Assembly: GCA_010405405.1 (NCBI GenBank)
Contig: MU004234.1
Coordinates: 1,887,275-1,951,274, forward strand
DNA: 64,000 nucleotides
Direction of reading: 5' to 3'
DNA from: Microthyrium microscopicum
Lineage: Eukaryota
Shown: positions 9,984-45,969 of the stretch, in pieces
Position numbering within the stretch: the first letter of the stretch is position 1
How the letters are laid out: each line of letters begins with the position of its first letter
Made by a program: the position numbers and the translations under genes
Notes under the pieces: model-generated
What the model was told of the DNA's origin: nothing
Seen by the model: the letters and a program-made list of their open reading frames with translations, nothing else
Database searches by the model: none

Positions 9984-9992
9984 AGTTCCATA

Positions 9993-12134: not shown

Positions 12135-12330
12135 ATATCAGTCCGGTTGACGATATGTTAGCAAATGGCCAAGAACTGCACACGGTTAGAGCCAGGACAC
12201 AGCAGAGCAGAATCAGGTGGAGATAGATCTTTCAAACGGGACATATCCCGTTGAGTAATTGTACATTATCAACTAGTAGTTATGCTCATTATTTTAGGTA
12301 TTTTCTCACAGTGAAGCGACAATGACAAAT

Positions 12331-14078
12331 CTACAACGTATCGATCTGTCCCAACACCCACTGCAAGTGTCGATATGCCACTCTAGGTTGGAACTGTGGT
12401 TGCATGTGGCCTGATTGGCGAGTGGTAGCCCACATTAGTCCTATAATTAAGTTAGCATTGGAAGTCGAAGGATGAATATGCTGCTTTTCTTACCTCGCTC
12501 GTAATGTTGAGTGCCCATCACACCTTGTCCAGGGCCATCGAGACCTCCAAAACCGTTCTCGTCAAAGACAGCCTCCCATTGAAGATCAGGCAGCTGAATG
12601 ACAACATCTTTGTTGGGCGCTTCGTCGAAGCCTAGCTTTCCATTCCATGTCATGTTCTGGATACTGAGTAACGTTCCGTTGCTAATAATCTCGTAGTCCC
12701 AGTCACCATTGGCAATCAACACTCGGTTAGTAGCCTCAATGACCTGTGGTAGAACAGACTGGATAGGATCCAACGACAGATCATAGTTGCCATATGGACC
12801 TGGATCAGTGCCATTGAAGACTGGTCCGCTGCACTCTGCCCAGTTGACTTCCTGAGGGGCGTGGATGGCATCCTTGACTTCTGAGCGGTTGAAATAAGGG
12901 CCGTCGAAATCGGGGTAGTTGTATATGAGATCGGTAGGGAAGGACAGTGGGTCGAAGAGAAGTGGGCACGTAAGCGAGATCTGATAGACGTTGAAGCATG
13001 GGTTCCCTTGGAACACGGCGTCATGCGCAATGTCCCATACATCGCACTCTTTGCTCATTTGGTTGTATGATCCGTTCAGCACTGGCTGTACGCCGGATGC
13101 AGGGAAGGTGAGGTATTTTGAAATATAGTCTTCGTATCCGCAGTCCTTGTGCGCCTTTTGAAGGGACTCCATGACGGTGGCGTTGAGGTTGAATAGTTCA
13201 GTGTACTTCTCCACGTATGGCACAGCTGTCATGGTATCTCCGATGTAATCGTATTTTCCAATGACTGGATCGTACATAAGCGCACCACCGAGATCAAAGT
13301 TCTTGGTGTCGTTCTGCTTGAGAATGGCATCGGATACGTAGGGTACATAGCGTCCGGCATATGACTCTCCTGTCACATAGACTTTATAATCTTCGATGCC
13401 GAAGATATCTTGGAAGTTCTTGAAGAAGCCTACAAAGTCTTGCGCAACTTCTTCCTCGCTTGTGGCAGTGACTGCGCCAGTACTGAAACCAGTACCTAGA
13501 AACTATTAGTGTCTGTTCATATTTCCGGACAAGACTTTGAGCTTACCGACTGGGAATTCCACCCACAGCATGTTGGTGAGATTTTGCCAGCTATATGGGT
13601 TTGGTAATCCATTGTATTGGCCCCAAGTCCATATAAAGGGACCATTTTCTTGAAGAAAGCCTTCCAAGGAACTGCAGCCAGGCCCACCGTTCAACCAGAT
13701 TGTTATATCTTTTGAAGGCTCTCCTAGCTTTGGAGCAAAGAAGAAGAACAGACTCCGCGAAGTGTCGTTGCTGTCGATTGGAATTGTACCCGAATACAAC
13801 TCTCCGAAATCAAAATCGATACCGGGTAATGAGTCTACTTCATATGCTAAGAAATAATTAGTAGAGCGTCTTCAACAATGGAGCAAAAACCTACGATCTG
13901 TATCGCTCGAACCAAATACTGAAGGTGTAGAGCTATTTTTCGTTCCATCTCTAGGAAAAATCGCACCCCGATGTTCTCTCTTCCGATTCAACTTTGGACT
14001 TCTCATCGACTCACTTCTCATTGACTCCACACCAACCGCCAACAAGAGAAATACCTTTGAAATCCGTGAAAACAACAT
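12331..14078 (-). CDS. Secreted serine carboxypeptidase, family S10 (multi-exon)
   Basis: Signal peptide; [16 protein letters not shown] nucleophile; NGDWD; C-terminal GHMQPQFQP catalytic His exon. Confidence 0.93.
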
Positions 14079-14976
14079 TTTATCAGATCAAATCGCCAAG
14101 TTTTCACACAAAACCAAAAAGCTTAGCCACGGCATTATGCACGCTTTAAAGCAAGTAACAACATTTCCCACAATGTAATTATTTTAGGCATTACACAAGT
14201 GATCGACGTTAAAGATAACAAGCATTCATTGGAAGGTCGCATGGCATATGCGCGATCTTGTCCCATGCAGTTGACCAGAATCCCGGTTGCTACCTTGCTT
14301 TGATCCGTCCTGCCATGTTGAGTTAGACTGGGTGGATGCCTCAACAACAAAAGTGACTATCGCAGCAGGTGGAAGTACGCGGATGGAGGCGAGGGACAAG
14401 GATCGACACTAGGTGACGAGATGCGGAATAGACTGATAACAGTAACTGTCAGCAATTCGACTCGATTGGTATCGCTAAGGGCATTCTCGTCTCCATCATC
14501 CCCCATGCATGCGCTCATAAACGTGGAATGAGGCAAGGGTGGAGCTTTTGGGACAATGAGTCGTGGGAGTTGGAGTTTACTGGAGAAGGCAAGTCAAGTT
14601 TCTGGACGGAGAGGCCGTGAGATGATGGAATTCGGCTCAATCCAATCATGACCGCTTGAAGTGTTCTCGGGTCATGTTTGAGTGAAGGAGTTCGCATCGA
14701 AACTGAGGTTGGTCAATTCTAGTAGATCTTGAATATCTCCGTCAAGCCAATCACAATCAAGGACACCATAGAGTGAGATGGCGCTACTGCTCTTAGCATC
14801 CGGAAATAACTCCATGTCCAGCCAGTACAGTATTCGAGGATTCTTGGTGTTTCCACGAAGAAAGCAACAGACTGACAGTACTAGAATTAAGCTCAACTCG
14901 TTAATTATTGGGCTTCATTCCATCAGTCAATGATGACAACATATTCATGATAAGTCTGGTGTAGTAAATACGATAT

Positions 14977-16661
14977 TTAGCGACCTTCCAGCCGCTTTTT
15001 TTCCACTAGTCTTCCCTCTTCCCGCCTAACAAGCGCATACCATCCGGACCCCGCCCAGCACAATGCTACACCGACCCAGCTATGTACTGGTAGCCGGAAG
15101 TTATTGAAAATCACAATCTGTACTGCTGCCCGCGGCACGCCAACAAAGCAACTCGTTAGTGGGCTTGTTGCTCTTACCATGGCCAACGAGCTGCTATACA
15201 CAACAAACGCACAAAAGCCACCACATGCGCAGATAAACCAGAACCAAAACACGTCTAGGAAGTAGCAATTCCTGAAAATACGTGGTAGTTCGCCTGATAT
15301 GAGGACCATGGGTGAGAGTATGATGAGGGAGAGGATGGAGTTGTAGTGAAGGAGCTGGTAATAGGCGCGAGTAGACTGCTTGCTGCCGCTCTCGATGCGT
15401 CCACGACTATCGTCATGATATGGGGTAGTAGGTGAGAAGGAGGTGAGGACGTCGCCGGCCCGCACTTGGGAGGCGATGAGGAGTTTGTGAGTGCGCTCTA
15501 GCAAGATAGGGTACAGGGAGACGAAGAGGATGCTGAAGACGCCGGCTACAATAGCTTCCCAGGTGGCAATGGAGCGCGTGCGGATGCTGGCGATGAGCAG
15601 GTTGAGCCAGGCGGTAAGACAGGAAGAGAGAGTGGCCACAGAGTGAGTAGTGCGACCAAAGGTGGATGTGAGGATTAGCGTGAGCGGTATTATGCCGATG
15701 CGGCAGAGGGTATAGAGTGGGAGCGCTGAGTAGGCGAAGGAAATGTTGCTGAGTAGTATTTTGCCAATGAAGATCACGGATAGTGGCAGGACTGTTTTGG
15801 CAGTTGATAGATGAAATTCCAGGAGTCCACCGCCGGCAATGCCGCCGTTGCCTTTTGATATGGCGGATATGAGTCTAAGAGGATTGAGAGACGAGAAACC
15901 GAGGACTCTTGCGCCGCCTGACTGTGAGTTTTGCGGATGGCTCGGAGCAATGAGAGCTGTAAGACCAATTTTGCGTAACGGCCCAGCGAACCATCTTGAC
16001 ATAGCGGCCCATATCAGCAGAAATACATGGCAAAACAACAGTTGTATCCAGGTGGCCGTCAATGGATAAGGGAATTTGTATACTCCATCTATTCCTCTAT
16101 TAGCAATTGGTAACGCCCAATCCAGTCAGAATTCTCACATAACAATATCACCCGGTTGAGGAACACCAGCAATATAGAAAACGTAACGTTCACGGCCGTA
16201 ATAATCCCCACATACACCTGCCAACCAGCCCAAGAACCGAACAGAAATGCTCCCAATCCTCCATCCCGCCAACGGACCTTCCACAACGATGGTCCGCCCG
16301 CCGAGTCTGCTACCAGCGGCCGTAGACTTGATGAGAAAATATTATCATCCTCATCCTCTGATTGTGTAGCACTCGTCGCGCGGTACGGCGTTGGACTGGG
16401 AGTCCGGGAAAAGTCTATGAGGGGAACACCAGTCGTCGAGTCGACTTCCGCGGATGAGGTTCGCGAGTGTATGCTTCGGCCGGTCGAAGACTTGGGCGTG
16501 TCGAGATTGGAGAAGGACATGTCCGCGAATGCCTCATCGTCAAGGTAGGCGCGGGAGGCTTTGCTGGCTGTTTGGCGAGCGGCGGAGAAGCGGTCGGAGA
16601 GGATTTCAATGGCGGGTCTGAAGGGATTGGAGTTAGGGAGGAAGGGTCGCGGGAAGTTCAT
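14977..16661 (-). CDS. Nucleotide-sugar / triose-phosphate transporter family membrane protein (intron near 16.09-16.14 kb; start could be 16520)
   Basis: LVFLNRVIL...YKFPYPLTATWIQL and TSPLTS motifs; many hydrophobic segments. Confidence 0.8.
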
Positions 16662-16779
16662 GTCTGAGGCAAGCCATTCAGGGTGATAGCTCTTGCTTGC
16701 ATCAGGATTCGTTCAAGTTGAGGAACGGCACCAGTGTAATAATGGATGGAGATCAAGGTTGCTAAACTAATTAGTAGCA

Positions 16780-16970
16780 AAACTAGTCTAGTCTAGTAAA
16801 CTAGTTACGTGACTAGTATAGTATTATACTATACTAGTTACGTAACTAGTATAGTATAGTACTAGTTTAGAAAAATTTAATAACTAGTTAGTACTAGTAT
16901 AAAATATTAAACTAGTTAACTAGTATAATATAATAGTAGTATACTAGTTCTATTAGTTTAATACTAGCTA
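16780..16970. repeat. Left subterminal ACTAGT repeat array of the hAT
   Basis: Many ACTAGT hexamers just inside the left TIR, mirrored at the right end. Confidence 0.75.
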
Positions 16971-17059
16971 AGCCTTTTATATTTAAACTAAAATATATAT
17001 TATTTAATAGCTTTATATCTCTAGAATCTAAATCTAGTCTTATAATTTTAATAATATTA

Positions 17060-18010
17060 ATAGTTATAGAGTTATAGATAATATAAAATAGATTTTAATA
17101 AAATATATAAGTATATATATTTACTTTTATTATTAATAAATAGTATAATAATATACTTCTTTAGTTCTAAGTTATAGTATTATAATATAGTTTAGTAGCT
17201 CTATAACGTAATATAGATTTAATATCTTATTTCTATTTAGTTATTATAATATAAAATAGCTTATAAAGTTAGTACTTTTTAAAATATAAATAAATATAAA
17301 AGAAGATAAGATATATACTAGATATTACTATTATACTAACTACTATAGAATACTCTATATACTTTTATTAAATAGATATATTAATAATATATAATTTATT
17401 AATAAGATTAAAATAAAAATATAAGAAAATAAATATATAAAGATTAAATTTAATATATATTATAATATCTAGTATTTAATAGTACGTTTAAAAGATTTAT
17501 ATAAATATTGTATAGTATTATAATACTATTAAGTAGGTTTATAATATTATATGGGTTTTAACTCTTATTTATGTTTAGTTTCTATAATATAAAATAATAT
17601 ATAGAAAACTACTTTATAAAATATAATATTATCTAGTAGAAGATAAGATATATAATAGGTATTACTATAATACTACTTACTAGGAAATACTCTAGAGATT
17701 CTTATTATATAAATATATTAATATTATATAATCTACTAATAATATTTTAATAAAAATATAAAGAAATAAATATATAATAAATAAATTTAATATCTTTTAT
17801 TATAACTATAATAGAAAAGTAGTCTTTATAGTTTTTTATAAGATTTATATATTATTATAACGCTTAAGAGTAGCTCTATAATTTTATATAGGTTTTAAGT
17901 CTTATTTATATTTAATTTCTATATAATAAAATAATATATAAAAAAGTTACTTTTATAAATATATTAAGATCTAGAAGGAGATAAGATATATATTATATAT
18001 TATTATAATA
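17060..18010. repeat. Degenerate tandem repeat, ~337-bp unit, ~3 copies
   Basis: Anchor AGATAAGATATAT at 17304, 17641, 17979, with alignable flanks. Confidence 0.75.
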
Positions 18011-19425: not shown

Positions 19426-19743
19426 GGAAAACTTAATATACTTATATTCTTTTAATATAGGATTTACGTGCTAAAAATACTATTATAACTACTATAATTT
19501 AGGCTTTAAAACGTATATCATTTTAATTAGTTTAGGTACGTAATATAAAAGTTATTAATAAAAATAGATAAGACGCGTAAATATTTTACTAAGCGCCCTA
19601 TTTAGTTTTATTAATAACTTTTATATTACGCGTCTAAACTAGTTAAAATAATATGCGTTTTAAAGTCTAAACTATAGTAATTATAATAGTATCTTTAGTA
19701 CGTAGATTCTATATTAAAAGAATATAAGTATATTAGGTAAACC
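19426..19743. mobile_element. Foldback/MITE-like element, 318 bp
   Basis: ~140-bp inverted arms around a short loop, GG...CC ends, TATTAA direct repeat on both flanks (19420-25, 19744-49). Confidence 0.7.
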
Positions 19744-21145
19744 TATTAAAATTCTTACTTATCTTAGATCTTAATTAATTACTTTACTTATACTACTTTA
19801 AATTATACTATTACCTACTTATAGCTTACCTATATCTCTCCTTATTATTAAAATTTACTATATATATTTTGATCTATTACTAAAAATTACTTTTCTTTTT
19901 TTACTTTTTTAAATATTTTATTATATATAGACCTTTATTATATAATATAATACTATATTCTTCTCTTTAGAGAATTAGCTTTTATAGTCTATAGCTTTTA
20001 TTACTTTTACTCTAGTTAGTATTAGTTTATTTAGCTTTTAGAAATAATTAGACTTTAAGTTTAGATTTTATACTTTTAAATTTCTAAGCTTTTAAACTAG
20101 TTACTATAATATTAGTTATTATTCTAGGCTCTTCTTATTAGATATAGAATAGCTTAGTTATTTTACTTTTATTATTATATCCTTCCTTAGCTTTATAGTT
20201 TATAAATTATTTAAAAAAATAGAAAAATCTTTATTTATTAAAAAATATTAAGACTTTTTAGTAGATTTTTATAAGACCTTCTTTGGCTCCTACACGGCTT
20301 AATTTGCACCACTTCATTAATTTAATTTAAATAAACCTTTAGAATCCCTTTGCTAACGCTTAGGGATTACTTTTATAAATTTTTAGCTAGACGCCTATAC
20401 GCGTTATAGTGTTGTTACGGCTAGAAGAATGGCTAAATTAAATAACTAAAATATAGAAGAATAAGACTCTAATTTTAAGAGCTATAAGAGCTTACTTAAC
20501 GATAGCCCTTTAGAACTACTTAGTATAGTTAACGTAGTAGGGATATCCCTATCTAGAATATAAAAAGGCATATAAAAAGGATTAGAAATAATTATCTTAA
20601 AATAAGTCTTCTATAATACTATAGAGGAGCTTATTAAGCTAAAGGACTACGTCCTCTACTAAGAGGAAGAGCCTCTAGTAGCTAAATACCCTACCCCTAA
20701 ACCTACCTTTCTTAAAACTATCCTTAATTAGCTTAATAAGATTAAAGTAGTAGTTTAACGTTATTCTACTATACTAGCTCTAAAGCTATATTCCTAAGTA
20801 GTAATTACCTCCTATACTAAACTACATATAAGTAAACTAAAAAGTTATTCTATTATCCTATAACCTAAGGCAGAATAATATATAGGGACCCCTTTAGAGG
20901 TTCTTAAGGAACTTAAAAAGACATTTATAGGTACTATAAGCGTACGCCCTTTATAGAGTAGTAATCTTTGAGTTATCTTTAAAAATACTAAATAGAAGGA
21001 TTAGGCTTAGTACTTAACCATTAAAGGTACGTAAGTACTTTAGTAGGATTATCTTATTAAAGTAACTAGTATACTCTTAAAAAGCATTAGTAATAGGGTT
21101 CGTTATAGTAAGGTAGTTATTTAATTATAACTTAGGGTTTATTAA

Positions 21146-21369
21146 TATAAGGAGCTAACGGGCGCAATTAGGCAAGTAGAAAGTAGCTAGTATTGTAGAA
21201 TCTAAGTATAAAGAAAAGAGATCTAGAGATATAGCTACAAATGTAAAGAAGTAAGAGCCTAGGATATCCTTAGATATACTAACCCTAAACGGAATAAAGA
21301 GATCTTATCTAGAAGATTAGATCTTAGTATCTAAATACTATAATACTAAACCTATAAGGATTCTTTATA
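21146..21369 (-). repeat. 3' LTR of Gypsy A
   Basis: 224-bp direct repeat of 44682-44905; RIP-ed TG...CA ends. Confidence 0.92.
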
Positions 21370-23085
21370 TAACTCTTCCCTTCTAAAATAGACCTTATAG
21401 GCTATATCCTAATCTAATCTATTCTAGTCTAGTCTAGGCTAGTCTAGGCTAAGCTAGGCTAGTCTATATAAATATAAAACTCCTTTATATATATTACTAC
21501 TAAGGAATATAATAATATACTATCTACTTACCTTAGTACTATTTAAATTTATTTAATAAAGAAAAAGATATCTATTTAAGCTAGTTTATAGTATCCTATA
21601 ATCTCTTTAATAGCATAAATTAAAAAACTAAACTAAAGGTATAATACTATTAGTAAAAATAAATAAATATAACGCTTTTTATACTATATAATTCTAATCT
21701 ATAAGTAGTTTATTAGTATTATAATCTTCTTTTTTAATTTAATTTACTAGTAGAGACTAAGAAGGGTATAAACTAAGCTTCTAAGAATAAAGCCTATAGA
21801 ATTCTAATATAGTATTAGATATATTAATAGCATTTTTCTAAGGCTACTAAGTTTTATTATAAAATCTTATTTATTTAATCTTATATTTAAGCACCTTATT
21901 CTTACCCTTACTATCCTATTTACTATTAATAATAGTATTAACTAGCTATTCTTTTTTACTTTCCTTTTTATTAATAACTACTAGAGGAGGATTTAACTTC
22001 TATAATAGATATACATTATTATTAATTAAATATAGTAGCTAAGTATAGAATACTAGGTATATCTTTATTAATTTAGAAAGATCTAATTTATAAGTTACTC
22101 TATTAGTTTTATATAATATCTTAAAGAGACTAGTACTCTTACTATTAAGTATCTTAGAAAAGTAAGTAGTATTATAATTATATACGTTAAGTCTTACCTA
22201 GTCTTTAAGATAGAGATCTAGTACTAGATAGTAATATTTATTAGCATAGAGCTTTTATTAAGCTTAAGCTTAAACTAATTACTTCTTTAAAAACTTATAA
22301 AGCTTCTTATAATTATCTTAAACTTAATCTATAGTAATTACTTTCTTACGCGCTATAATAAAAGCATAAGACGCTTTTAGTAGTAGGTAATAAGTAAATT
22401 TAAGCCCTAATTTTAGTAGAAAATTATTTTATACCTTAAAAGGTATAAAACTAGTAGTAGCATTTATAGCAAAATTTACTATAAACTTAGTAAATAATAA
22501 TAGAGTTACCTAATTATTCTAATTCTAATTAATAAAGGATCTAAGATATTACTTTAAAGTAGTAATAGTTATTTTAGTAATACTATTAAATTCTAGATAC
22601 TATATAATACTTAATCTTAGCATAATACCTATTTATTCGTATAGATAACCCTAAAAAGTAGATATAAATTAGATTCCTTAATCTAAAAGGATAAAGTTAG
22701 GCTATCTATATAGCTTCTATACTTAATTAATAAAAGCTATAATTATTATTTTTACTAAAAGACTTAGGAGGATAATAAATTGCTATAACTATATTAAATA
22801 ATTAATAATAACTATAATATACTAATAAACTATACCCTAATAAGTATAATATAGTAGTAAGATAACAAAATCTATTAAAATATTAGACTATACTTAGTCT
22901 AGTAAAGAGAATAATTAAAAAAGGCTTTACTTCTTTTAGCGTACTAGTTTTATAAAGATATAATAGTAGCCTTTAATATATTTCTTAACGTATTCTAATA
23001 TTCTTAGCTATTAATAATCTTATTAAAAGTAGTAATATATTATTATAGTTCCTTTATAGCTTATAACTTTATATTAATATACTTA

Positions 23086-23180
23086 GGGGGAGTAGTACAG
23101 TAGTAGTACTTACAATCTTACAGATAGGCCTTACCTATTCGAGTATCCATAGGGCACAGGTTCGATTCCTGTCTCTCCCA
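23086..23180 (+). promoter_or_regulatory. tRNA-derived Pol III promoter head (A and B boxes)
   Basis: Acceptor stem GGGGGAG/CTCTCCC-A, D arm GTAC-AGTAGTA-GTAC, T arm ACAGG-TTCGATT-CCTGT; anticodon arm degenerate and elongated. Confidence 0.8.
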
Positions 23181-24290
23181 CTACCCCAAAAATAATAATC
23201 GTTACTTACTTTTAAAGCTATGATTACTCCTTCTTAGAGAAGGTTATCCTTTCCTTTTTAATAGGTGTAGAGAACGAGCTATAGCTCTTTTTAATATGTT
23301 GCAGAAGGTGCAAATTTTTGTATTACATAATTACTATATATAGCTATAAGATTATCCTTATTAAAGCTCTATTAATAATAATGGACTAGCGTTAAAAATT
23401 ATATAATTAGAAACTAGCTACTTAATACATAAAGCTATATATAAACAAAGCTATAATATTACTAAAGCGTAGTAAATTCAGTATGCTAAAGCTAATTCTT
23501 TTACAACTTTTAGTAATTAGATTAGACGATCGGCCCTAGCTTAGTAAGCCTAAAATCTAGCTATAATTAGTTAAGGCAAAGATTAGACTAAATAATATAG
23601 TAGAAACTTATAGAATCTAGGAATACTATAGCTTAGTAAGTATAGTGTCTACGAGTTAGCATAAATAGCGCTATAGGATAAGTTAGTAGACTTAGGGGAG
23701 GTAACCTAGAACACGCCAAGCTAAAGGACCCTAGATAATAGCTTAAAAGTAAAGCATAGCGTAGACGAATAGCTTTTAGCAGACTATTAGTACTACCTTA
23801 GACTTAATATTACGACAAGAATAGAGGGATCTAATATAATAATAAGGAGGGAATTAGCCCTACAAGGCGATAATATTAGTAACTTTAGGAACTTAAAGCA
23901 GTAGACTAATTAAAAGAATATACCGCTATTACGAAAAATACGCCTAGAGAAGTACTAATAGGCTAAATACTTCCTAGAATTTAGCTCCCTAATCTACTAA
24001 AGCTTTCATAGCTTAGGAGGCTAATAGGGCTTAGTAAGATATAATATTAGCCTTAGCACGAATTAGTATATAGAATATAATAGTAGGATTTTCCCTTATA
24101 TAGTTAGCGCCTTAGTTTACTAAATATATAGAAGTTAGCTAAAGCTAAACTAGGCCTTAGGCCTAGAGTAAGCTAGCTTAGCTAGATTTAGGTAGATTAG
24201 CTAATTAGATAAAGGTTTTTACCTACTTATTAAGAGTAGTGTCTATATAGCCTATTAGCATAGCTAAAAGATAATAAACAAGATTTATAT
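23086..24290 (+). mobile_element. tRNA-headed SINE-like element (~1.2 kb) with LINE-derived 3' tail
   Basis: 15-bp TSD ATATTAATATACTTA (23071-85 / 24291-305); tRNA-like head; last ~60 nt match the 3' end of the LINE at 26521-26579. Confidence 0.85.
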
Positions 24291-27200
24291 ATATTAATAT
24301 ACTTATTTTATTACTTTGTTTTATAAATATATTATTAATATAAATAACTTTTATTAATAAAGGATAGTATTATTTAGTAAAGCCTTATAATCTATTAATT
24401 TAATCTAATCCTAATTTAGTACTTTAAAGAGCAAGAAGTAGTCTTTCTATATCTTTATTAGTTAAATCGTAATTAGTAACTTATCTTTCTTACTTACCTT
24501 TATTACTTTTTATATAAACTACTCTAAATTAAAGTTTAGAGATTTAGTATTAATTAGTAGCAAATTATCTAAGCTAGCTAGAGCTTTATTCTAAGAGCTT
24601 CCTACAATAGGTTCTAAATTAGACTCTTTTACTATAGTAATATTTAACTTATCTAACGTAAGTATAGCTATCTATATAAAGAATAAGGTAATTAGGTTAA
24701 TAAGAATTATAGCTAGCTTAATAGCTTATTTAATACTAAATTAATATAAGAATAAGAGTAGTTAATACTATTACTTAACCTATAGATTTTTATTACTTTA
24801 AAGTATATTCTATAATCTTTAGATTAAAGTATTAGCTTTGCTATTATCTTTACTAAGGTAGTATTTAATTAAAAAGTAGAATTATAATAAGAATTTAGCT
24901 TAATATATTTAATAGCATATAAGCTTCTTAGTCTTTATAAAGGTTTAAAGATTCTAATAATCTAAAAATACTTTTATAATATCTTTAGTACTAAATAGCT
25001 TAGGTTTCTACTCCTTAAAAGTATAAATAATAGTAAGTAGTTCTTTATTATAAATATTATAATTATGTTCTACTAGTAATATCTTTTTAGAAAGAAAAGT
25101 AACTAGTCTTAGATTATTATTTATATCTTTTTATAATAATATAGTAGCGTAAGCTTAATTAAATATATCTATCTCTATCTAAGTTTCCTTAGTATAGTTA
25201 AAATACTAAAGTATTAGTATATTAGTAAAGTCTATTTTTAGTTTCTTAAAAGCTTATTTCTTAGGCTTATTAGAGTTCTAAGGAAATATAGCTAGAGTAT
25301 TCTTCTAAGTAAGATTTATTAATAGTACTATTATAGTAAAGTAATTAAAGATAAACTATTAGTAGAAGTTTATAAATCTAAGAAACGCTTATATATCTTT
25401 AAAATAGCTTAGTTATTTCTAATTAGTTATAGTATTAACCTTAAAAGGGTTTATCTTAATACCTTTTATAGTAATAATTAAACTAAGGTATTTTACCTCT
25501 TAAATAGTAAACTCTAACTTCTTAATATTAAGAAATAAGCCTATACGTTCTAATATATTTAGTACTAAATATATATAGGCGTTATATTCTTTTAGTATTT
25601 TACTAAATACTAGAATATTATCTAAATAGATAGTTATAAAATTATTTAAAAACTATATTAGTATATAATTAATATATACTTAGAATATTCTTAGTCCTTC
25701 TATAAGGCTAAAAGGTAGTATTTTAAACTTAAATAGGCTATAGTATATTAAGAATACTATTTTATATTTATCTTTAGATTTAATATAAATATATTTAAAG
25801 ATAGTAATAACGTTAAACTTAAAGTAATATTTTGCCTTTATAAGGTATATAAGCATCTTACTAATAAGTAGTAGAATATTACTATTTTTAATAGTAATAT
25901 TATTTAACTTATAGTAGTTAATATAGATATAGATACCTCTTCTTAGTTTACTTACGTAAAGTATAAGTATAGTATATTAAGATTTAGAACCTATAGCAAA
26001 ACTATACTAGAGTAAACTTTTAATATATTACTTAATAACTAATACCTACTTTAGTAATATTAATATAGATTAGCGTTTTAGAATTTTAGTATTAAAAATA
26101 AGATTAATAGTATAGTTATATTTACTACGATACAATATAAGAATATTTAAATACTTTAGATTAAAGACTTTAAAATATTAGTAGAAATATTCTAGAATAA
26201 GCTTTAAAATCTCTTTCTTTAATAGATAAGAGTAATCTTATTTATCTTACTATTTAAGATAATCCTCTTCTAATATAGCGTATACTATAAGATTTATAAT
26301 AAACCTATTATTATTATTCTTATTATTAGGAGGTTTCTTCTTTTTCTTATTATTAAAATCTTTAGGCTAAAATATATTAACTATAATATCTTTACGCTTT
26401 ATTAGTTTTTTAAACGCTATTATAAATATAAAAGTAATATCTAATTTCTTAAGTAATTTTAAATTTATAAATTATTCTTTTAGGTCTATAGTAATTAGGC
26501 GTTATAATATAATATATATATATAAATCTTATTTATTATCTTTTAGCTACGCTAATGGGCTATGTAGATACTATTCTTACTTTTAGAAAAACCTCTATAG
26601 GGAAACCTATAGTGTTCCTTTAGTTGCCTTCTAGTAGCCTTATTCTATTATTATTATAATACTTTCTTAGTTTACTACTTCTAAATAGAAGGACTTATAT
26701 TATCTCTTTATAAACTATAAGCTTACTAAAGGAATTCTAGTTAGTAGGTTAATATAGTAAGTAATTAGTAGTTACTAGCTATTAGGAGCTCTATATAGCT
26801 TAAGTATACTATATATTATATAAATTCTATACTACGTACTAAGATCTTAATCCTTAATACTATCTTTATTACTAGTTTCTCTTTTAGGACTTATTTATTA
26901 CTTAATTACTTAAGGCTATAGTATTCCTTAGGATTAGTTAAATCTAGCTTCTTAGCGCCTATTTCTATTTAGTATTGCCTTATTATTAAGTTTTACTATT
27001 ATAGTTTAATAAGTTCCTATTAATCTTCTCTTTCCTAGAGGCCTATAGCTATTATCTTTATATAGTTAACTTTTTATATAGTTTTATAATAGGTATATAT
27101 AATACGTATTTCTAAGTTTTTATAATTAATTTCTACCCTTAATAGGCTCTAGTATTGCTATAGCCTTTAGCTATATTAAGCCCTCTCTTTTAATATCTAT

Positions 27201-28389
27201 TAAGTAGAGTATTTATAATACTTCTTAGCTAAGTTTTTCTTATTAATCTATACTCTTTAATACTATATAATAGGCTACTAAATAGCTACTTCTAAGTTTC
27301 TAGTAGTCTATATAGTCTACCTCTAGAGTATAAAGTATTTTAAATCTATATAGTTTTAGTTACTTCTTTCTCTCTAAGTTTTTATTATACCTCTTATTCT
27401 TTCTAATTTTTTTTCTAAGGGTAAGTTCTCTATAGGCTTCTTTTCTTCTTCTTCCTCTTATTTTTAAGTACTTAGTAAATATCTTATACTTATAGGTACT
27501 TTCCTTCTATTATTTCTAAAGAAGGTAAAAACTACTTTATTTATAAATATTAAAAATACTACTTTATCCTTAAATATAAAATTAGCTAGTTTTATTTTAG
27601 CTTTTATTATAAGTTTTTTAGTATTTTTTTATATATAGTATTAACTATTATAATATAGACTATATATACTCTTAATATAAGAATCTATTTATACTATCTC
27701 TAAGTATTATGCTATTATATAGAGTTACTTAATAGTAAGTACCTAGTTAGTTCTAGCGCGTCTATTATAGTAATTATCTATATTTATAGTTAAGCTAGCC
27801 CTAGCTAGTATCTTTACTCTTATTATAAAAAGTAATATTCTAAGTATAAGACTATAAGTATATTTTTATTCTTAATCTTTTATCTTTTCTAATATTATAA
27901 TAAAGTACTAGTAGAGTTAAAGAAGTAAGGTAAACACTTCTAATATACTTTTAATAAAGTAATAGCTAACCTAGTTAACCCTTATTAAAGTATTAAAGAG
28001 TACGTATTATTAAGTATAAATAAGGAGGCTACTAAGTAGGTAGAGGTTATAAAGGATTTAGTAAGTAAGTTTATTAGCTATAGGGCCTAGTTTACTTCTA
28101 CTATAGCTTTATTAGCGTAGTAAAAGAAGAAGAAGCTAAAGGTTAATATAGCTATGCTAGTTACTAATTTAGCTTACTTATAAGCTATTTTATTAGAGTT
28201 TTATACTTAAAGTATAAAGATAGATTTATTAGTAGAGATATCTTAGTTATTAAGTAGAGTAGTAGTATTATTTAATAAAGAGTAGTAAATAGATATAGAA
28301 TAAAATTAATTATATTTTTAGACTTAGCTATTTCTTTTATAATTATATATTACTAGCCTATTAGTATTATAGTATTATAGTTAATTATT

Positions 28390-31300
28390 TATAAGATTCT
28401 TAAGTCTTAGTAGTTCTTTATACGCTTTAAGGTTTATTTTTATAATCTTTTTAGTTAGCCTAAATTGCTAAAGAGCTTTACTCTTTAGTAGCTATTTAGT
28501 TGCTACCTAGGTATCCTTTAGATTAGAGAGTATATAGGTCTTATTTAGTATTATTACTTATTCTAGTAATCTTTCTTTATAATATTATAGATAGTTTAGT
28601 AGTATATAGTAAACTATTTATTACTAGTAATTATATAGGTACTATAGTAAGAGAACTATTAGTACCTATATATTATATAGCTAGTTATTAAGTCTAATAA
28701 CTTTTAATTATATAAGGAAGAGCACTATTACTTATACTTTATTAAGACTATTATAAAGCTTAATTAGTTAGTTACTTTATAATATTTTCTACGCTATAGT
28801 AATATACTACTATGTCCTTATAAGCTATACTTAAGTATTTATTTAGAGCTTATAGTAATATGCCCTAATTAGGGATATCTTTAGCTTTAGTTTAGTTTTT
28901 ATTTTTTTCTCTTTTTATAGCATATTATTTATTAGTTACGTTACTTATTTATAGTTAGTATCTTATTTTTACTTTATCTCTAATTTCTTTTTTTATTACT
29001 TTAGTATATTAATTCCTTAAGTTATAACCTTAGTTACGCATATTTATATTAGTTTAAGCGTTACTAGACTTCTTAGTTATTACTACTAGGAAGGTATCCT
29101 CTAGTTTCTTAAGAGGTTTACCTAGTATACTTTAGTAATAATTTTACTTATTTTTTATATTATTATTAAGTCTTTATTCTTATTAATATATTCTTCTACT
29201 AAAATTATAGTATTTATTTAGAGTAGTTTAATTCCTATTTCCTTATTTAATAAAGTAATAAGAGTTTTTTAGTATTTTTCTATTATCTTATAGAGTATAT
29301 TATTCTAAACTATTACTAGTAGTTTATAATAATCCTTTAGTACTTTAGAAGATAGTAATCCTAAATCCTATATTTATACTCTATATATAAGAATTAGCCT
29401 AATAACTATTATATAAAGGAGCTTTATTTTTCTAAAGACTAGTCTTTATTTTAACTATGCTATTCTTAAAAGTATTATTACTTACTTAAATCCTTTAGTT
29501 TTAGTCTTTTTAATATAGTCTTTTTAGTTTATCTTTCTATTTATTTATATACTTAGTATCCTAATACTTTTTAGTATAAGCTTAGTAAATATACTATTTA
29601 TTATTATTATAGATTATAAGTCTACTTCTAGGTAGTAGATATTTTAAGTAAAGTATATTACTTAGTACTTATTAAGAATAAACTTTATACTATATTTATT
29701 TACTTAGTTAGTATACTTTTAGTAGGTTTTTTCTAGTCTTATATAGTTTTCTTAGGTAGTATTACTTTATATAACTAATATAGTATTATTTATAAACCTA
29801 AATCTAAAAATGTTATTATTAATATCTTAGAAGTATTTTAGTAGTTCTAATATAAAGAAAAGGAAGAGGATAGGTAAGAGGGAGAATTTTTAGGGGATCT
29901 CTATATTAGTTATTATTACTAGGCTTTAATGCTTAGTAAATATAATTTAGGTTATATAATTAGTAGTAAAGCTTACTACTATGTTAATTAGCTACTAAGG
30001 AACTTCTTTTATCTCTAAAATATATAGAAGTCTCCTTAGATTAATATTATTATATGCTCCTTAAAAGTTAAGGCTAAGTACTAATACTATAGCTCTTACG
30101 TTTTTCTTCTATACTACCTTAATAGTACTCCTTAGGAGCTATACTATTATTAGCGTTAACTACCTTACCCTAGCCCTTATCTAGTTCTAGAGTAGTAGGT
30201 TATTATCTTTTATAAGTTAGGTAAGTCTATTAGTAATAATCTTTTTAACTAACTTTGCTATAATATTCTTAAGGATAATTAGCTAGTAGGCTAATAGTAG
30301 TAAGTAGTCTTTCTTACCTAGCTTTTTTAGTACTAGCGTATAGAATTACTTTAAGTATTCTAAAATTATACTACTTATTAATATTTTGCTAATTATAGGT
30401 ACTAGTCTTTTACTAAATTCTATTAGTTTTAGATTATTACCCTTCTTTTTAGGCTATACCTTAAGCCTAAGAGCCTTTAGGACCTTATTTAGTATATTAA
30501 TAGGTCTTATTACCTTATAATTTAGAAGGCTACTAATTACGTAATCTATTTTTTTTACTATTATTTTATAGTTTATCTCTAGTTCTAGAAGTAGGATAGT
30601 ATTTTCTATATTACTTAGGTCTATTACTCTAGTTTAAGGAAAGAACTTTATAGATAGTATATTTACTTTACTTTAGTTATTATAAGTATAGTTATTACTA
30701 GTTATCTATCTAAGTACTAGTAGGTATAGGTCTTCTTTTAGTTTACTAGCTTTAATTTTTATTTACTTACTTATTCTTTATAGGCCTTAGTTCTTATAGC
30801 GCTTATAATTTTCTATAATCTCTTCTATAAAGGTTTACTAAAATATTACTTTATCCTAGCGTAGAGATTTCCTTAGCTAAGCTATAACTAATTTATATAT
30901 ATACTTATCTTAGTTATTTCTTATTTAAAAGTATCTTTTCTTTATATAATACTTTCTTTATATTAGTAAGGTAGTTATAGGTAACTACCTATATAAAGCT
31001 TACTTTAAGGGTTTTACTTTTAAGTAGTAAATCTCTAATACTTCTATTATTACTCTATATAGGGCCTTTATTAGTATATCTTTAGTATTCTATAAGCTAT
31101 TATTTATATATTTAATAAATTATTCTATATCTAGTTTTTATATATTATACTATACTTTTAGTATATACTTCTCTTATCCTAGGGTAAGCTAGATTAATAC
31201 TAGGATATAATCTTCTATTAGTACCTAGGTATTAACTAGGCTATAGAACTCTAGTCTTTCTTAAAGGAATTAAGATATAAATATAAAGTTAATTACTATC

Positions 31301-31885
31301 TTTATTACTCTTACTTTTCTTTCCTTATATAATCTATAGGTTAGCTCTCTTTTTAGTATACCTAGATAGAGTCTCTACTAGATTATATTATAGAGTAAGG
31401 TATTTACTTAGAGTTTAGTAGCTAATACTATGCTTTTCTATTAATAGTAGTAGTAATTAAAGTCTTCTACTAATAAGATCTTTTCTTTTACTTTATTAAT
31501 TATCTTTATTAGTATTAGGTATTTAGTAATATAGTTATAGTTACTTACTACTAAGCCTTTACTATATATATTAATAATTATTAGTATTATATACTTATAC
31601 TAGAGGCGTAGTATTAAGATAAATTAGTTATAATATTTTACTTACTAGTTCTCTATATTAAGTACTTTACTTATTATAAAGTATACTTTTAATTAATTAT
31701 TCTAATTATATACTAAAGCATAGCTAGGAGGGTAGTACGTTTTTTTTAGCTTTATAATTCCTTTAGGGTCTTAGACTACTATAATTAGTTACTTAGTATT
31801 ATTTAGTAAATTAAAGAATAGTTTTACTTCTTTTTTATTTAACCTTCTATAGTTATATTAAATAATATTAATACTATTTATTTAA
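28390..31885 (-). pseudogene. LINE ORF2 relic: AP endonuclease, RT, C-terminal zinc finger
   Basis: After reverting RIP: IIQYN/QDP (~31.8 kb), GDFN-like (~31.6 kb), PGKKDY..AYRPI (~30.3 kb), GIPQ.SPLSPILFLF (~29.9 kb), FVDD (~29.79 kb), C.C...QTV.H (~28.6 kb). Confidence 0.85.
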
Positions 31886-31905
31886 GTCTATTATTTAGAT
31901 TTTAC

Positions 31906-32132
31906 TGTAATGATTCCTCTTTATAGGCTTTATAGCGGTATTGTGAGAGAGATCTTATTATAAGATCACGTGCTAGACCTAAGGGAGTTAACACGCCTAA
32001 GGATCTACTAAGTAGACTTACTTCCCTCGTAGATCTATAGCTCTTCTAGATCTTCTTCTCTCTCTTTCTTATTTATAGATTCTAGAATATAATCTAATTA
32101 TTTGCTTACTCTAAGTTCCATAGCTCGTTATA
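31906..32132 (+). repeat. 5' LTR of Gypsy D
   Basis: 227-bp direct repeat of 39344-39570. Confidence 0.93.
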
Positions 32133-35100
32133 TAATCTATGAACTATTTAACTACTTATACGCTTATACTACGCATCCTAGAATTTACTTTTAAAGAAGC
32201 GCTTATATAGATTAACATCCTATACGCGTAGTCTTAGACCCTATTAAAGATTCTTTATAGATTTACTAAATTTATTAGCCCTACTAACCCCTTATCTAAT
32301 TAGAGCGTTAGAATTCTCTAATACTCTTTAACCTATTAATAGTCTTAGCGTTAATTACCCCTTATCCTTAGTTCTATAGAATACTAAAGTTTGTCTTCTA
32401 TACTACTACTAAATATCTATAATTATACTTAATATACTTACTATTAAGACGCGCTAAATAAATAAGTGTTCTTTCCTAGTATCCTTCTTTATTATTTATA
32501 ACTATAGCTAATAAGGCTCCTAACTAATGAACCTAAGTTAATAGCTATATAGCCTGCTTGCTATCTTTAATTACTTATACTTAGCCTAATAATTAGTGCT
32601 TATCTCTATCTCTTATATACTTACGTTACTTATCTTCGTTACGTTACCCCTTTATTATGCGTGCTAAGTATTAAAGTAGACTTAATACTTAGGATATAGT
32701 ATAATTAGATACTACCTAGAAAGTAGTAGATTTAGTAGAGAGCGTCTTAGGACTATTAAAACTACTAGAACCTAACTTAAGAGCATTATTAGAAAATAAA
32801 GACGAGTTAGAAGATAATTATCTATTAGAATAAGGCTATAAAGGTAAAGAGACTAAAGCGTTAAAAGACGCTCCTTAAAATACTAGTTAAATAACTTTAC
32901 TAAACTAAATAAATATAAGAGATAACTAGTTGCTAGCTTTTTTCTAACCTAATAATAATACTAGACTTTCTTTTAAAATATATAAATAGCTAATAGAACT
33001 ATATTAGTAAGCTAAAGGCCCTAGAGTACTACTTATATTAATATCTTACTACTTTATAGTAGTAGACCTTAATTAACTAGTTACTCTAACTATTAATAAG
33101 AACCTTTTAATCTTCTAAGCTACTTAAGTACGAAAGATGCCTAGTAAAGAAGGTAATAAGCTAAAAGACGTAGGAGTATACTTCTATTATAAAGAAAAGT
33201 AATTAGACCTCTATTACTACTCTTACTACCTAATTAAATTAGGTATAGACCTAGAATGTCTATTAAAAAAAGAGATTATGTTAGATAACCTAGTTATATA
33301 GCTCTACGCCTTATTATTAGCTTCTTAAACTATAGCCTACCTCTTTAAAATTAAGTAGAATATAAATGCTTATAATATAGACTTAATCTATACTCTCTAA
33401 GAAGAAGCTTTAGAAGCTTAGGAAGAGATATAAGACTTAGCTAAAACTAATAATAAACGCGCAAAGTAGATTACTTACCTTAAAGCGTAGATTTAAGATA
33501 ATACTATTGCCCTTAAGGAAGTAGTAACTACTTACTAAAAAGTATAGGAGCTATAATATAATAATAACTTACTTAAGGAAGTACTTACTACTTATATTAA
33601 TAAGATTAGTAAATACCATAAGGCTTTATAGGAGAAAGTAGATAAAGCTACTATCCTTTAAGCCTAGGTTAACGCCCTTTAAAAGAAACTTTTAGCTACT
33701 AAGGCGACTAATCCCTATCTTAATTATAATAAGTTAGTAGACGATAATCTATTCTGCTAGACCTCTCTAGCTTAGGATATAGACTAATCTAACTTAAATA
33801 TATCTTTAAGGGTACTAGATTTATATTAAATTACTTTCTTCTCTAACCTTAACTTAATTAGTAGCGTCTCTCTTCTTAAAGTATAGAGTAATAAGCCTTT
33901 ACTCTTCTTAAGAAAGAATAAGTAGAAGTACTACGCTTAGAAAGGCAAAGTACTAGACTATCTTAATAATAACGCATAAGTCTATCTTATAGAAGCCTTT
34001 AAGATCTAAGTCATCTAAGGAGTAATAGAGGATTAGGCGTTTAGTACTATTAATAAGTAGAGTAACTATAAGTTAACTAACCTATATTTATCTATAGTAG
34101 AGATATAGTCTAATCTAGACTATAAGTATAGTATTAAAGATAGCTACATTATTACTAAGACCTAGCTTAAAAGTTAAGAAGCTATAATAAAGCCTACTAA
34201 GAAGCTTAAATAATTCCTAGCTTACTTCTTAGAGAACTTATAAGAGGCTAAGCTTAGTAATTAAGATAAGATTATTAAAATACGTTCCCTTTTACTCCTA
34301 AAATTCGTAGAGAGAGTACTCTTCGTAAAATTAAAAATATTTATAGATTTCCTTAAGAGCTTATATACTATTACTTATTATATTAAATACGTCCCCTCTA
34401 CTAATTCATAAAGCTATAATAATAATAATCGTTTAGTAGCTAAGGGTAGCAAACAAAAACCTAAGTTTAATTACCTTTTAGATATTTATAATGCCTTAAA
34501 GGCTAACAACTATTATATAAAGTATAGAGAGAAAGGCTATAGCTATTAGCATAACTTAGCACTATATAAGGATAGAGATACCTTATTAGATGCCAAAATT
34601 TGACTAAAAGTTATAGCTATTATTATAGAGTTTACTACTATCTATAATTAAATTACTACTTAATCTCCTTAGTCTCTAACTATAGAGGATAATTATAATA
34701 AGTACAATTATAGCAACGATATAGAAAACTAAAAGCTCCTTTATAGAGACGCGCGAAGAAGCTAAATAAGTAAGAAGTATATAATTAGTAACGAAAGAAG
34801 AATAAACCTAACCCTAAGCTAGTTCTTATAAAAGAACAAATCTAATATAAGGTTAATAAGACTATCTAGTGCCTAGAAGTTAACCTCTAATAAGCATTGT
34901 CCCTAGAGCCTATTATATTTAATAATACTAAGTTAGCTATTATTAAGATATTCCTTATCTTTATAGTATATAATTTTCGCCCTTAAGAAGTAGCTACTAT
35001 ACTTATAGTAAGTAATTAGTAGACTACTTACAGTACTATATTCTCTCTAAAGTAAGGCTACTACTTAAAAATTAATATTCTTATAGATATAGGAAGTAGA

Positions 35101-38100
35101 GTAATAAGAATTATTTACCCTAACTTTATTAAATAATATAGGATCTCTACTATTAATCTCTTCGCCCCCTAAATTATATAATTAGCTAATAGTAAGGCTA
35201 TTATAAAGGTTAATAAAGCTACTATAGTTAACGTCTATTTAGAAGGGTATATTAAATAAATCTACTACTTTATTATAAACGTAGCTAGCTACGATATTAT
35301 TCTTAGTAATCTATAGATTAACCTCTATAAAGTTACTCTTAAAAGAGGAAAGAAGTAAATCCTCTTTAATTTAGACTATTACTTAGTATATTACTTACTA
35401 GCTAATTGCCTAATCTCTATAGATTATAAAGGCTATTTAGTTAACCTAACTAATCCTTACTTTAAGAATATTACTATAGTTAGTATTACCGCCTTTATTA
35501 AACTACTAGAATAAGGCTAGTAATTTAGTAAAATCTAGCCTAATAATTTTAAAGATGAAAAAGATAAGAAACCTCTAGATCTAGATCCTATGCTAAAAGA
35601 AGATATCGCTATTAATTTAGGCAAGATCTTACCTAAGGATTTTAAAAAGTAGCGAGAGAAGTATAATAAATCTCCCCTCTTATAAGAAGAGATTCTTAAA
35701 TACTTACTAAAAGAATATTACTATTATATAGACATCTTTAACCTAAAATTAAGCAATAAACTTATACTATACTATAGCGAATAAGATTACTCTATTAATA
35801 TTATCCTAGATGCTATAATTCCTAAATACTACTATAATAGCCTAAGTCACTAGGAATCCTTTATTATTAAATAATACGTTAATTAGATACTTAGTTAAGA
35901 TTAAGTTTAGGCTAGCAAATTATATTACGCCATACTAATGCTATATGTATATAAACTAAGAGAAGGAATTTAAGTTTATATTAATTACTACAGACTTAAT
36001 AAGATTATATAAAAGAATCATAACGTTTCTTTATAGCTATTAGAAACTTTAACCTATATCTATTACGTAAAATACTTCTCTAAGTTTAACGTTATTGCTA
36101 CCTTTATATATATCTATATTAAACCTAGCAATAAATATAAAACTATATTCCTAACTTACTATAGGTTATATAAATTTAAAGTTATGCCCTTTAGCCTTAC
36201 TAAAGCCTTAGGGACCTTTTAAGCTTATCTTAACTATATTCTAATTAATTACCTTAACGACTTTATTATAAGCTATATAGACGATCTATTAGTCTTTAGT
36301 AATACTAAAGCTAGCTATACTACCTATACCTACTTAGTCTTAAAAGTAATAAATAAAGTAGGATTATACTTAAATATCTAGAAGTGTAAATTTAATACTT
36401 AATAAGTTAAATACCTTAGCCTAATTATTACTACTAAAGGCATTAAAATAAACCTAAAGAAGATTTAAAGTATAGTTAACTAGTAACGTTCCTCTTTAGT
36501 TAAAAACGTTTAAGCTTTCCTTAGCTTTACTAACTTCTATTACTAATTTATTCTTAAATACTTAAAGACTATAGTACTACTAATAGTACTTATAAAGAAG
36601 GACGCTATAGCAATCTTCTCTTAAGACCCTAATAGGCTAGAAGAACGCGCGTTTAAGAAGCTAAAGATAGACTTTACGTTTACTAAGATATTATGCTACT
36701 TTAACTATATTAAAGAAACATAGCTAGAAATAGATGCCTTAGATTAAGTTTATGCCGTAGTTCTCTCTTAAAAAGGTAATAATAGGAAGCTTTACCTAGT
36801 TATATACCTCTTAAAGAAGATAACTCTAATAGAATATAATTATAATATTTATAATAAAGAGCTTCTAGCTATTATCTATATATTTAAGGAATAAGAACTA
36901 GAGCTATTTAGCTCTATCAACCCTATTTAAGTATTCTTTAATTACTATAACCTTTAGACGTTTATAATAACAAAACGTCTCTTTTAACAATAAGCTAGAT
37001 AGGCTAAGTTCTTCTCCTAGTTTTACTTTAAGATAAAGTACTAACTAGGTATAGCTAACGAAAAGGTAGATGCCCTTACCTATTAGTTATAAGATATCTT
37101 ACAAAGTAATAACGATCCTTATATCTTTTAATAAGTCTAACCTTTACTATTCCTATATTAATTTAATATAGACTATATAGTAAAGCTAGCTATATTGCTT
37201 ATTAAACCCGCCCACCTCTTAATACTATACCTAGCTACTATTACTTAGGATAAGTTAGATATTTCTAATCCTATAGGTAAGCTACTTAATCCTATAGAAG
37301 AGTCTCTTAGTAATAATAAGACGCCTAAGAATAAGCTACTTAATTTCTTAGAAGATAACTTATTCCTAAATTTTAATAGCGACTAGTTTTTATAGGATAT
37401 TGTAAATATAATAGAATATAACAAAACGATAATTACTATTTACTACGCTAAAACTAACTACTAGCTCTTCTTACCCTTTAGTACTCTAGAATAAGAGCAA
37501 ATTAAGCTTAGAGACTATATAGTAGCTACTAACAAAATAATCCTTTACTATAATTAAATCTTTATCCCTTAAGGAAAGCTTTAGCGCCACGCTATATAGA
37601 GCGCATATAGCTATAAAGCTATAGGCTACAATAGAGCAGTAACAACTTACTACTACCTATAAGAAAATTACTAGTAGCCTAAGATATCATAGGACGTTAA
37701 GAGCTTTGTTAAGGGCTATAAGTATATATTTACTAAACTAGTTTGCTAAAAGAAGTAAAGCTTTCTACGATAATTCCCTCTTCCTAAGTACGTATAGTTT
37801 AATATCTCTATTAATTTCGCCATCTTATTACCTTATTATTTATACTAAGGCGTAATCTACTAGCACGTTATAATAGTTATTAACTAATACATACAGACCT
37901 AATGCTTTATTTTGCTACTAGACCTTTCTATAGATTTAATAGTACTAGCCTTTATTAACTACGTATAAAAGCTTATTAGCTAGCTATTAATAATTCTTTT
38001 AGATTATAGTAGCTAATTTACCTTTATATTCTAGAAGCGTTTATACAAATACGTAGGTATAATACTTCGCCTTAGTATAGCATTTTACCCTAAAACTAAT

Positions 38101-39214: not shown

Positions 39215-39270
39215 GACTAGACTAGACTAGACTAGACTAAACTAGACTAGACTAGATTAGACTAGATTAG
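39215..39270 (+). repeat. (ACTAG)n pentamer array in the Gypsy D 3' UTR
   Basis: ~11 tandem pentamers upstream of the PPT. Confidence 0.85.

Positions 39271-45932: not shown

Positions 45933-45969
<37 letters not shown>

Follow-up and report, generated by a model that had tools for sequence, protein, structure and literature searches.

The DNA studied here comes from the leaf-litter fungus Microthyrium microscopicum (assembly GCA_010405405.1, contig MU004234.1, positions 1887275 to 1951274 of the forward strand). The whole stretch of 64 kb is called the window, and positions are counted from its first letter. At 23086–24289 on the plus strand it carries an insert of 1.2 kb, which is very probably a copy, altered by repeat-induced point mutation (RIP), of a multicopy, non-coding and non-autonomous retroposon that resembles a short interspersed nuclear element (SINE) and has a 3' tail derived from a long interspersed nuclear element (LINE). 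A putative LINE with the same tail lies nearby on the minus strand. Both elements reside in Gypsy-1, a RIP-degraded long terminal repeat (LTR) retrotransposon (21086–44905, minus strand), and a second LTR retrotransposon, Gypsy-2 (31906–39588, plus strand), is nested in the LINE. The earlier note on this DNA had proposed, in essence, a tRNA-headed SINE-like element and a nearby LINE that share a 3' tail. This core was borne out by the target site duplications (TSDs) of the two elements, by a tail that agrees at 59 of 59 positions when only purines and pyrimidines are distinguished, and by contigs of further family members.

The insert, its tRNA-like head and its body

The insert comprises 1204 bp between two exact copies of the 16-mer TATATTAATATACTTA, which form the left (23070–23085) and the right (24290–24305) copy of the TSD. 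The 64-kb window has exactly these two occurrences of the 16-mer, which start at 23070 and 24290. When the 33-kb AT-rich block was shuffled in 3-mer blocks, 6–16 exact 16-mer repeat pairs were obtained per ~5e8 position pairs. Because such pairs are rare in the shuffles and because both boundaries are fixed independently, one by the start of the tRNA-like sequence and the other by the end of the tail, the match between the two TSD copies is not a chance event. An insert of 1.2 kb with a TSD of 15 bp had been described before; the insert as such was confirmed, and the length of the duplication had to be corrected to 16 bp.

The site before the insertion can be read from the comparison of the two Gypsy copies. 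Gypsy-1 has LTRs at 21086–21369 and 44625–44905, which are ~92% alike; the less mutated Gypsy-2 was delimited by its LTRs (31906–32156 and 39344–39588) and by Pfam. The Gypsy-1 flanks 22214–23073 and 24635–26260 align to 38468–37612 and 37267–35639 of Gypsy-2, respectively. The gap between these two blocks measures 1562 bp in Gypsy-1 vs 345 bp in Gypsy-2, a difference of 1217 bp. When the insert and one TSD copy were removed, the two Gypsy copies aligned without a gap at the junction and reached a score of 347, as compared with 331 when both TSD copies were kept. Gypsy-1 shows the filled site and Gypsy-2 the empty one, which lies approximately at 37600–37615 on the minus strand according to the ungapped alignment through the junction.

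The first 95 nt of the insert (23086–23180, plus strand) form a tRNA-like head with a 7-bp acceptor stem, a D arm, a long extra or variable region and a T arm. With Rfam family RF00005 this head gave a plus-strand match that covers the whole model (1–71) and begins directly behind the TSD (44.7 bits, E 7.4e-8; gathering score 29). Nothing else in the window reached the gathering level of an Rfam family. In the anticodon/variable region the head holds 39 nt where the tRNA model has 15. A B box with the pattern GGTTCGANNCC is located at 23159–23169; the pattern matched exactly and once in the window, where 0.09 matches were expected, and 9 of 100 shuffles had a match. An A-box-like sequence at 23093–23103 agrees at 9 of 11 positions with the A-box consensus, and its two mismatches, C>T and G>A, are of the RIP type. 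The former observation that the insert starts exactly at a tRNA-like fold with A and B boxes thus stood, with the Rfam score and the unique B box in its favor. ARAGORN with default settings found no tRNA. Directly after the discriminator base, positions 23181–23183 read CTA, and a single C>T change by RIP would turn CCA into CTA. If unmutated copies read CCA here, a mature tRNA, rather than a tRNA gene, may have been the source of the head.

The ~1-kb body between head and tail (23181–24208, plus strand) was examined by stop counts, codon periodicity and similarity searches. None of the six frames of the element had few stops (36–56 stops per ~350 codons), and codon periodicity was absent from the body (chi2 4.3, p 0.64). 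Among the copies discussed below, the 12 best-supported insertions or deletions all fall within 23375–23854 and are 1–2 nt long and frameshifting. The body is non-coding and the element is non-autonomous. A RIP-mutated open reading frame (ORF) hidden in the body had been suspected, and in particular one that begins with the ATG at 23381. Neither suggestion survived: the absence of a low-stop frame, the lack of periodicity and the short indels stand against any such frame, and the sequence from 23381 reads ATG GAC TAG, i.e. it reaches a stop after two codons. The body showed no similarity to the LINE or to the rest of the 64-kb window, neither in plain letters nor in purine/pyrimidine space. 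In the latter, the element without its tail reached a best score of 24 against the partner (controls 24.1 +/- 1.9). In the window copy there are nine runs of four or more T, the first of them at 23210, 30 nt beyond the head.

The shared 3' tail and the partner element

The end of the insert (24209–24289, plus strand; core 24231–24289, ending in ...AAGATTTATA) is a LINE-like 3' tail. In blastn, 24209–24289 matched 26598–26521 with 84% identity over 81 nt (E 1e-17), and apart from its match to itself the element had no other hit in the window. Viewed as two arms, 24231–24294 and 26516–26579 are 91% complementary over 64 nt. For a comparison in purine/pyrimidine space, C was made equal to T and G to A and strict scoring was applied, a permissive scheme being uninformative. 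Here 24231–24289 and 26579–26521 agreed at 59 of 59 positions, i.e. all differences between the two tails are transitions. In 40 shuffles the score did not exceed 30, as against 59 here, and the next-best scores over the whole window on both strands were 25–27. The shared tail is terminal in both elements, and the two ends are defined independently by the respective TSDs. A gapless, transition-only tail of ~60 nt common to the insert and to a minus-strand LINE 2.2 kb away had been noticed before, and the 59 of 59 agreement upholds it. At the very terminus beyond the tail, a nearly unmutated copy from one of the sequencing runs introduced below carries CAACAACAACA, the window copy TATA (24285–24289) and the LINE copy TATATATA before its TSD. 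This suggests that the 3' end is a short, variable simple-repeat tail and not poly(A).

The partner is found in two parts on the minus strand, a 3' part (26517–31905) with the tail at 26521–26598 and a region of reverse transcriptase (RT) motifs at ~29770–30327, and a 5' part (39589–41323) with ORF1-like periodicity. They are parted by the nested Gypsy-2, whose boundary, taken from the LTR alignment, is approximate. The partner is flanked by an exact 14-bp TSD, TATAATATAATATA, at 26503–26516 and 41324–41337; this 14-mer has exactly two occurrences in the window, with starts at 26503 and 41324. In the alignment to Gypsy-2, Gypsy-1 is broken at 26516 and resumes at ~41338, and the flanks map to adjacent positions. 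Given the TSD and the adjacent positions of the flanks, 26517–41323 was therefore inserted as one unit. Without Gypsy-2 this unit is a minus-strand element of ~7.1 kb whose 3' terminus is the shared tail. Self-blastn revealed neither LTRs nor terminal inverted repeats in it, and its 3' end reads ...AAGATTTATA plus TATA. It has the build of a LINE in that terminal repeats are missing, the TSD is of the variable type and the end is a simple-repeat or A-rich one.

One might object that 26521–26598 belongs to the 1.2-kb family, as an independent copy truncated at its 5' end that merely landed beside the 7.1-kb element, so that no LINE shares the tail. The exact 14-bp TSD, however, is found directly outside the tail and outside the 5' end, with flanks that map to adjacent Gypsy positions, and no second TSD is present between the tail and the 7.1-kb body. 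It would agree with the objection that the similarity stops ~80–99 nt from the end and that the 7.1-kb element has no database homologue; yet the number of variant contigs is the same on both sides of this point (16 at 26574 and 16 at 26664). We regard a separate truncated copy as very unlikely.

Codon-phase periodicity was detected at positions 1–1500 of the 7.1-kb element (p 1.5e-6, ORF1-like) and at positions 1651–4350 (p 1.5e-13, ORF2-like). Per kb it is comparable to that of the two Gypsy RT regions. The last 990 nt of the element had no such periodicity (p 0.84), and the stop density per frame did not distinguish the sense strand of the LINE from its antisense strand. For each codon of the frame in phase with 30327 we then noted which amino acids result when C>T and G>A changes are reversed. 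This RIP-reversal threading recovered, in canonical order and spacing on the minus strand, KKPGKKDY...AYRPI.L, GRST, LSLD..GAYD, G.PQGSPLSPILFLFF (29895) and F[AV]DD (~29796), which are motifs of non-LTR RTs. In the six frames of the 64 kb exactly one site is compatible with PQG[SD]xLSPxLF, namely the one at 29895 on the minus strand, and a site compatible with [FY][AV]DD follows downstream. Among the shuffles, motif B appeared in 2 of 40 and motif B together with motif C in 0 of 40. Judged from these motifs and its structure, we are fairly sure that the partner is a non-LTR retrotransposon.

A side effect of this procedure concerns annotation. At 29338–30477 (minus strand) a putative non-LTR RT can be read by eye after RIP reversal, and the same region is invisible to Pfam hmmscan at E 10. 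Profile-based annotation may systematically miss heavily RIP-mutated LINEs.

Further copies and the AT-rich setting

Evidence for a family came from contigs of sequencing runs. Four of the runs (X1–X4) belong to one sample (organism A), X5 bears another organism label, and X6 has the same species label and was classed as possible RNA by guess. Contigs of X4, X1, X5 and X6 were aligned to 22300–27300 at a likeness of at least 80%, X4 contributing 1832 and X1 786 contigs. Contig depths are not copy numbers, and the following statements concern the 40 differences (of 1312) and the 28 pieces (of ~2800) that were listed. At the listed positions inside the element, 9–14 distinct contigs in the body and up to 25 in the tail (at 24240) showed G or C in place of the A or T of the window.

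Three further 5' junctions with unrelated flanks were seen among the pieces listed, at 23084–23085, one in an X6 contig and two as joints in X1 contigs. In the first X1 contig the element start (23084) follows an element end with 19 nt in between; in the second it follows position 25989 of Gypsy with 36 nt in between. In the X6 contig, which is 1399 nt long, the element start (23085) is preceded by unrelated sequence of normal GC content. Another X6 contig, of 1514 nt, runs to an element end at 24285, after which CAACAACAACA and unrelated sequence follow. The family is thus multicopy and has a fixed 5' end.

The differences from the window copy to the X6 copy were A>G (22), T>C (20), C>T (2) and A>T (1). 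They are nearly all of the A>G or T>C kind, which marks the window copy as a product of RIP. The loose ends of the X6 copy are collinear with the window when compared letter by letter. After 23323, 12 of 30 letters differ, all of them with T or A in the window vs C or G in X6; before 24080, 12 of 30 differ as well, 10 of them of this kind. In X5 (share 0.20) low-depth contigs were found, one of which is identical to 23544–23743. By this pattern of changes the window copy is a heavily RIP-mutated member of a multicopy family, of which one nearly unmutated member lies in DNA of normal GC content. Scans of metagenomes with degenerate patterns of the tail and of a 30-mer from the body returned no match.

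These contigs also bear on the idea that the insert is a one-off chimeric retrocopy, made when the RT of a LINE, copying a LINE 3' end or another RNA, changed over to a tRNA as its template. The 64-kb window contains a single copy, as this idea would have it, but many variant contigs span head, body and tail, and three copies have the same start base with different flanks. The CTA at 23181–23183 could be the RIP-mutated CCA of a mature tRNA; a mature tRNA, however, would not carry 24 extra nt in its anticodon/variable region. We give the chimera hardly any probability. The earlier note had looked to copies elsewhere as a check on its proposal, and the variant contigs over head, body and tail together with the three 5' junctions supplied them, which excludes a one-off event.

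The insert shares its RIP signature with its surroundings. The GC content is ~46% in the gene-bearing flanks of the window (1–17000 and 50000–64000) and 13–30% across the 33-kb central block. The RIP index TpA/ApT is 1.8 in this AT-rich block and 0.78 in the flanks. For the 1.2-kb element, TpA/ApT is 1.84 and (CpA+TpG)/(ApC+GpT) is 0.38, the corresponding values of the flanking genes being 0.78 and 1.25. Among the flank ORFs, one encodes a SurE-like protein, which has 100% identity to a protein recorded under the name Microthyrium microscopicum, and another is a fragment of a fungal transcription factor. The identity of the host element Gypsy-1 was confirmed by Pfam, which found RT_RNaseH_2 (3e-16) and RVT_1 (2.7e-6) on the minus strand of 24306–26516. 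By arithmetic, the internal length of Gypsy-1 is ~7.27 kb after subtraction of the inserts vs ~7.2 kb for Gypsy-2. The nesting order is Gypsy-1 first, then the LINE and the 1.2-kb element, and then Gypsy-2 inside the LINE.

Other features of the block were noted in passing. At its left edge (17038–18010) there is a tandem array of three units of ~337 bp that are 71–78% alike, and at 19431–19738 a near-perfect palindrome with two arms of 149 nt, 87% complementary, and a 10-nt spacer. A microsatellite of the (CTAGT/CTAGA) type adjoins the 3' LTR in both Gypsy copies (21405–21466 and 39213–39274). The strongest codon-phase periodicity of the AT-rich block was measured at 46001–49000 (17–19% GC; chi2 145, p 8e-29), which is probably another RIP-degraded coding element. 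Pfam had no match in the six frames of 43501–46500.

Mechanism, known pairs and significance

The most likely interpretation of the three-part build, in which a tRNA-derived head and a body of ~1 kb are joined to a tail of ~60–80 nt that goes back to the 3' end of a LINE family, is the following. The RNA of the element would begin at tRNA position +1, its start being set either by the internal A/B-box promoter of RNA polymerase III (Pol III) or by a cut of RNase P in a longer transcript. The RT of the LINE would recognize the 3' tail ('stringent' 3'-end recognition) and would copy the RNA into a nicked target by target-primed reverse transcription, leaving a TSD of 14–16 bp. After its insertion into the older Gypsy element, the copy would have been hit by RIP. 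In this scheme we infer the polymerase that makes the RNA, the tail as the recognition target of the RT and the LINE family as the driver. The TSDs are similar in length, 16 bp for the element and 14 bp for the LINE, which is consistent with mobilization that depends on the tail and the LINE, and no more than consistent with it.

The polymerase is the step at which an alternative deserves attention. The family and its LINE-dependent insertion would be the same, but the RNA would be a transcript of RNA polymerase II (Pol II), made from a promoter of its own or by read-through, the head would be an RNase P site that gives a clean 5' end at tRNA position +1, and the element would be a composite retroposon in the manner of hominid SVA instead of a true SINE. 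SVA is a long, non-coding composite retroposon that is mobilized in trans by a LINE. Pol II transcribes SVA, whose RNA ends in poly(A) and is recognized by L1 in a relaxed manner; SVA lacks a tRNA head and is not related to the element by descent. The 5' end of the element lies within 1–2 nt of tRNA position +1 in four of four readable junctions, as a cut by RNase P would have it; on the other hand, a Pol III type-2 promoter requires just such boxes as the head has, with an intact B box and, at the spacing of tRNAs, an A box close to the consensus. The nine T runs, the first 30 nt past the head, would suit a Pol II transcript, but they may be C>T products of RIP, and 23252 and 23282 are indeed C in other copies. 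In X6, which could be RNA by guess, element ends are joined to 960–1430 nt of unrelated normal-GC sequence; yet X6 may be DNA. The length of 1204 bp points to Pol II as well, although fungal SINE-like elements of 700–900 bp have been published according to PMC5063351. All in all, as far as sequence features can tell, the A and B boxes favor Pol III, whereas the length and the T runs suggest an RNase P-trimmed Pol II read-through transcript. We hold the Pol II alternative to be rather unlikely and prefer the SINE-like retroposon with a LINE-derived tail.

This preferred reading has to be weighed against a number of results that count against it. Only one copy of the LINE and one copy of the element are fully readable, the other copies being known from summary tables. 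The parent tRNA of the head differs between ARAGORN modes: with -ps70 the program drew a class-II fold similar to Leu(CAG), in which the variable arm is long, and with -i an odd Cys(ACA) with a 5-nt intron. The nine T runs, counted in the window copy, would be expected to stop Pol III. The folding energies of the two tails were no better than those of their own shuffles (z -1.13 and +1.16). A TAGC...GCTA stem had been pointed out in the tail earlier, and a 5-bp hairpin, UUAGC-NUA-GCUAA, is indeed common to both tails, both copies being RIP-mutated; as a meaningful stem-loop it found no support, the tails folding no better than shuffles. For the LINE, Pfam found no domain of any kind in all six frames including those of the plus strand, and none in the RT frame up to E 10. 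A PDB sequence search with the RT frame had no match, and a search for protein homologues with this frame had none either, its candidates probably being swamped by words rich in I, L and K. Pfam did find RT and RNase H in Gypsy-1, which is equally RIP-mutated (RIP index 0.06 in both). Thus the severity of RIP alone does not explain the failure with the LINE. Because the profile and sequence searches were negative, the RT call of the LINE rests on motifs threaded through RIP-reversible codons. A Tad-type LINE had been suggested earlier; this affiliation found no support, as none of the profile and sequence searches recognized the element or yielded a homologue that could be aligned for a tree.

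The sharing of tails between SINEs and LINEs with stringent recognition is established, and in PMC3747384 two fungal pairs are tabulated. In the first, Mg-SINE and MGL/MGR583 of Magnaporthe, the non-autonomous element has a tRNA-derived head and shares its 3' end with a LINE, as in the pair studied here (PMC3747384). Mg-SINE measures 472 bp (PMC5063351) as compared with the 1204 bp of our element, and it comes from a different fungal class; the likeness is one of description. In the second pair, from Blumeria graminis, the tRNA-SINE SINE2-1_BG is likewise linked through its tail to a non-LTR element, Tad1-24_BG (PMC3747384). Tad1-24_BG is assigned there to the Tad1 clade, whereas the LINE described here is placed only as a candidate non-LTR element. 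Blumeria is without RIP according to PMC10648671, whereas all copies that could be read here are RIP-mutated.

A third pair has been proposed in Aspergillus fumigatus: AfuSINE2-1a has a tRNA-related head and a TSD of 14 bp, and its 3' region resembles the 3' untranslated region of a Tad-clade LINE-like element, I-1_AF (PMC5063351). AfuSINE2-1a is ~335 bp long and of very low copy number, and its similarity to the LINE was found by manual alignment; here, the similarity covers 59 terminal nt with transitions as the only differences. Non-coding fungal retroposons far longer than classical SINEs are named in the same paper, i. e. mgsr1 (800 bp), EGH24 (900 bp) and Eg-R1 (700 bp), all of which are under 1.2 kb (PMC5063351).

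In our literature search on repeats of Microthyrium microscopicum, this family included, no description was found. It is plausible that the element family is undescribed for this species, a judgement made from the literature. As an arrangement, the fungal tRNA-SINE that carries the tail of a LINE is already in print, and it is the length of 1.2 kb that is unusual for a SINE. With 1204 bp the element exceeds the usual SINE length of roughly 80–600 bp, so that it is not short in this sense, yet it probably works like a SINE.

To the specialist the finding will be expected rather than surprising. Few such pairs have been documented in fungi; PMC3747384 tabulates two and PMC5063351 proposes one. 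The present pair of SINE-like element and LINE is sharply delimited and comes from an order of the Dothideomycetes that has received little study. The locus also documents its own history cleanly: the site is seen both filled and empty, the two TSDs have similar lengths, and the order of nesting can be read. On the side of method, a heavily RIP-mutated putative LINE that was missed by Pfam and by the search for protein homologues could still be recognized by codon periodicity and RIP-reversal motif threading.

The length of the element and its exact start at tRNA position +1 raise the question of how long tRNA-headed retroposon RNAs are made. A bolder answer, which we consider distinctly improbable, is that the element is a LINE parasite of its own kind with a long non-coding RNA, that it is still active, and that its tRNA head is a signal for RNase P and not, or not only, a Pol III promoter. 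The notion of activity is based on the nearly unmutated copy, on its position in normal-GC DNA and on the high-depth contigs of X6, the possible RNA run. If this were true, a 5' end fixed by RNase P would be a route by which retroposition-competent RNAs arise from any read-through transcript.

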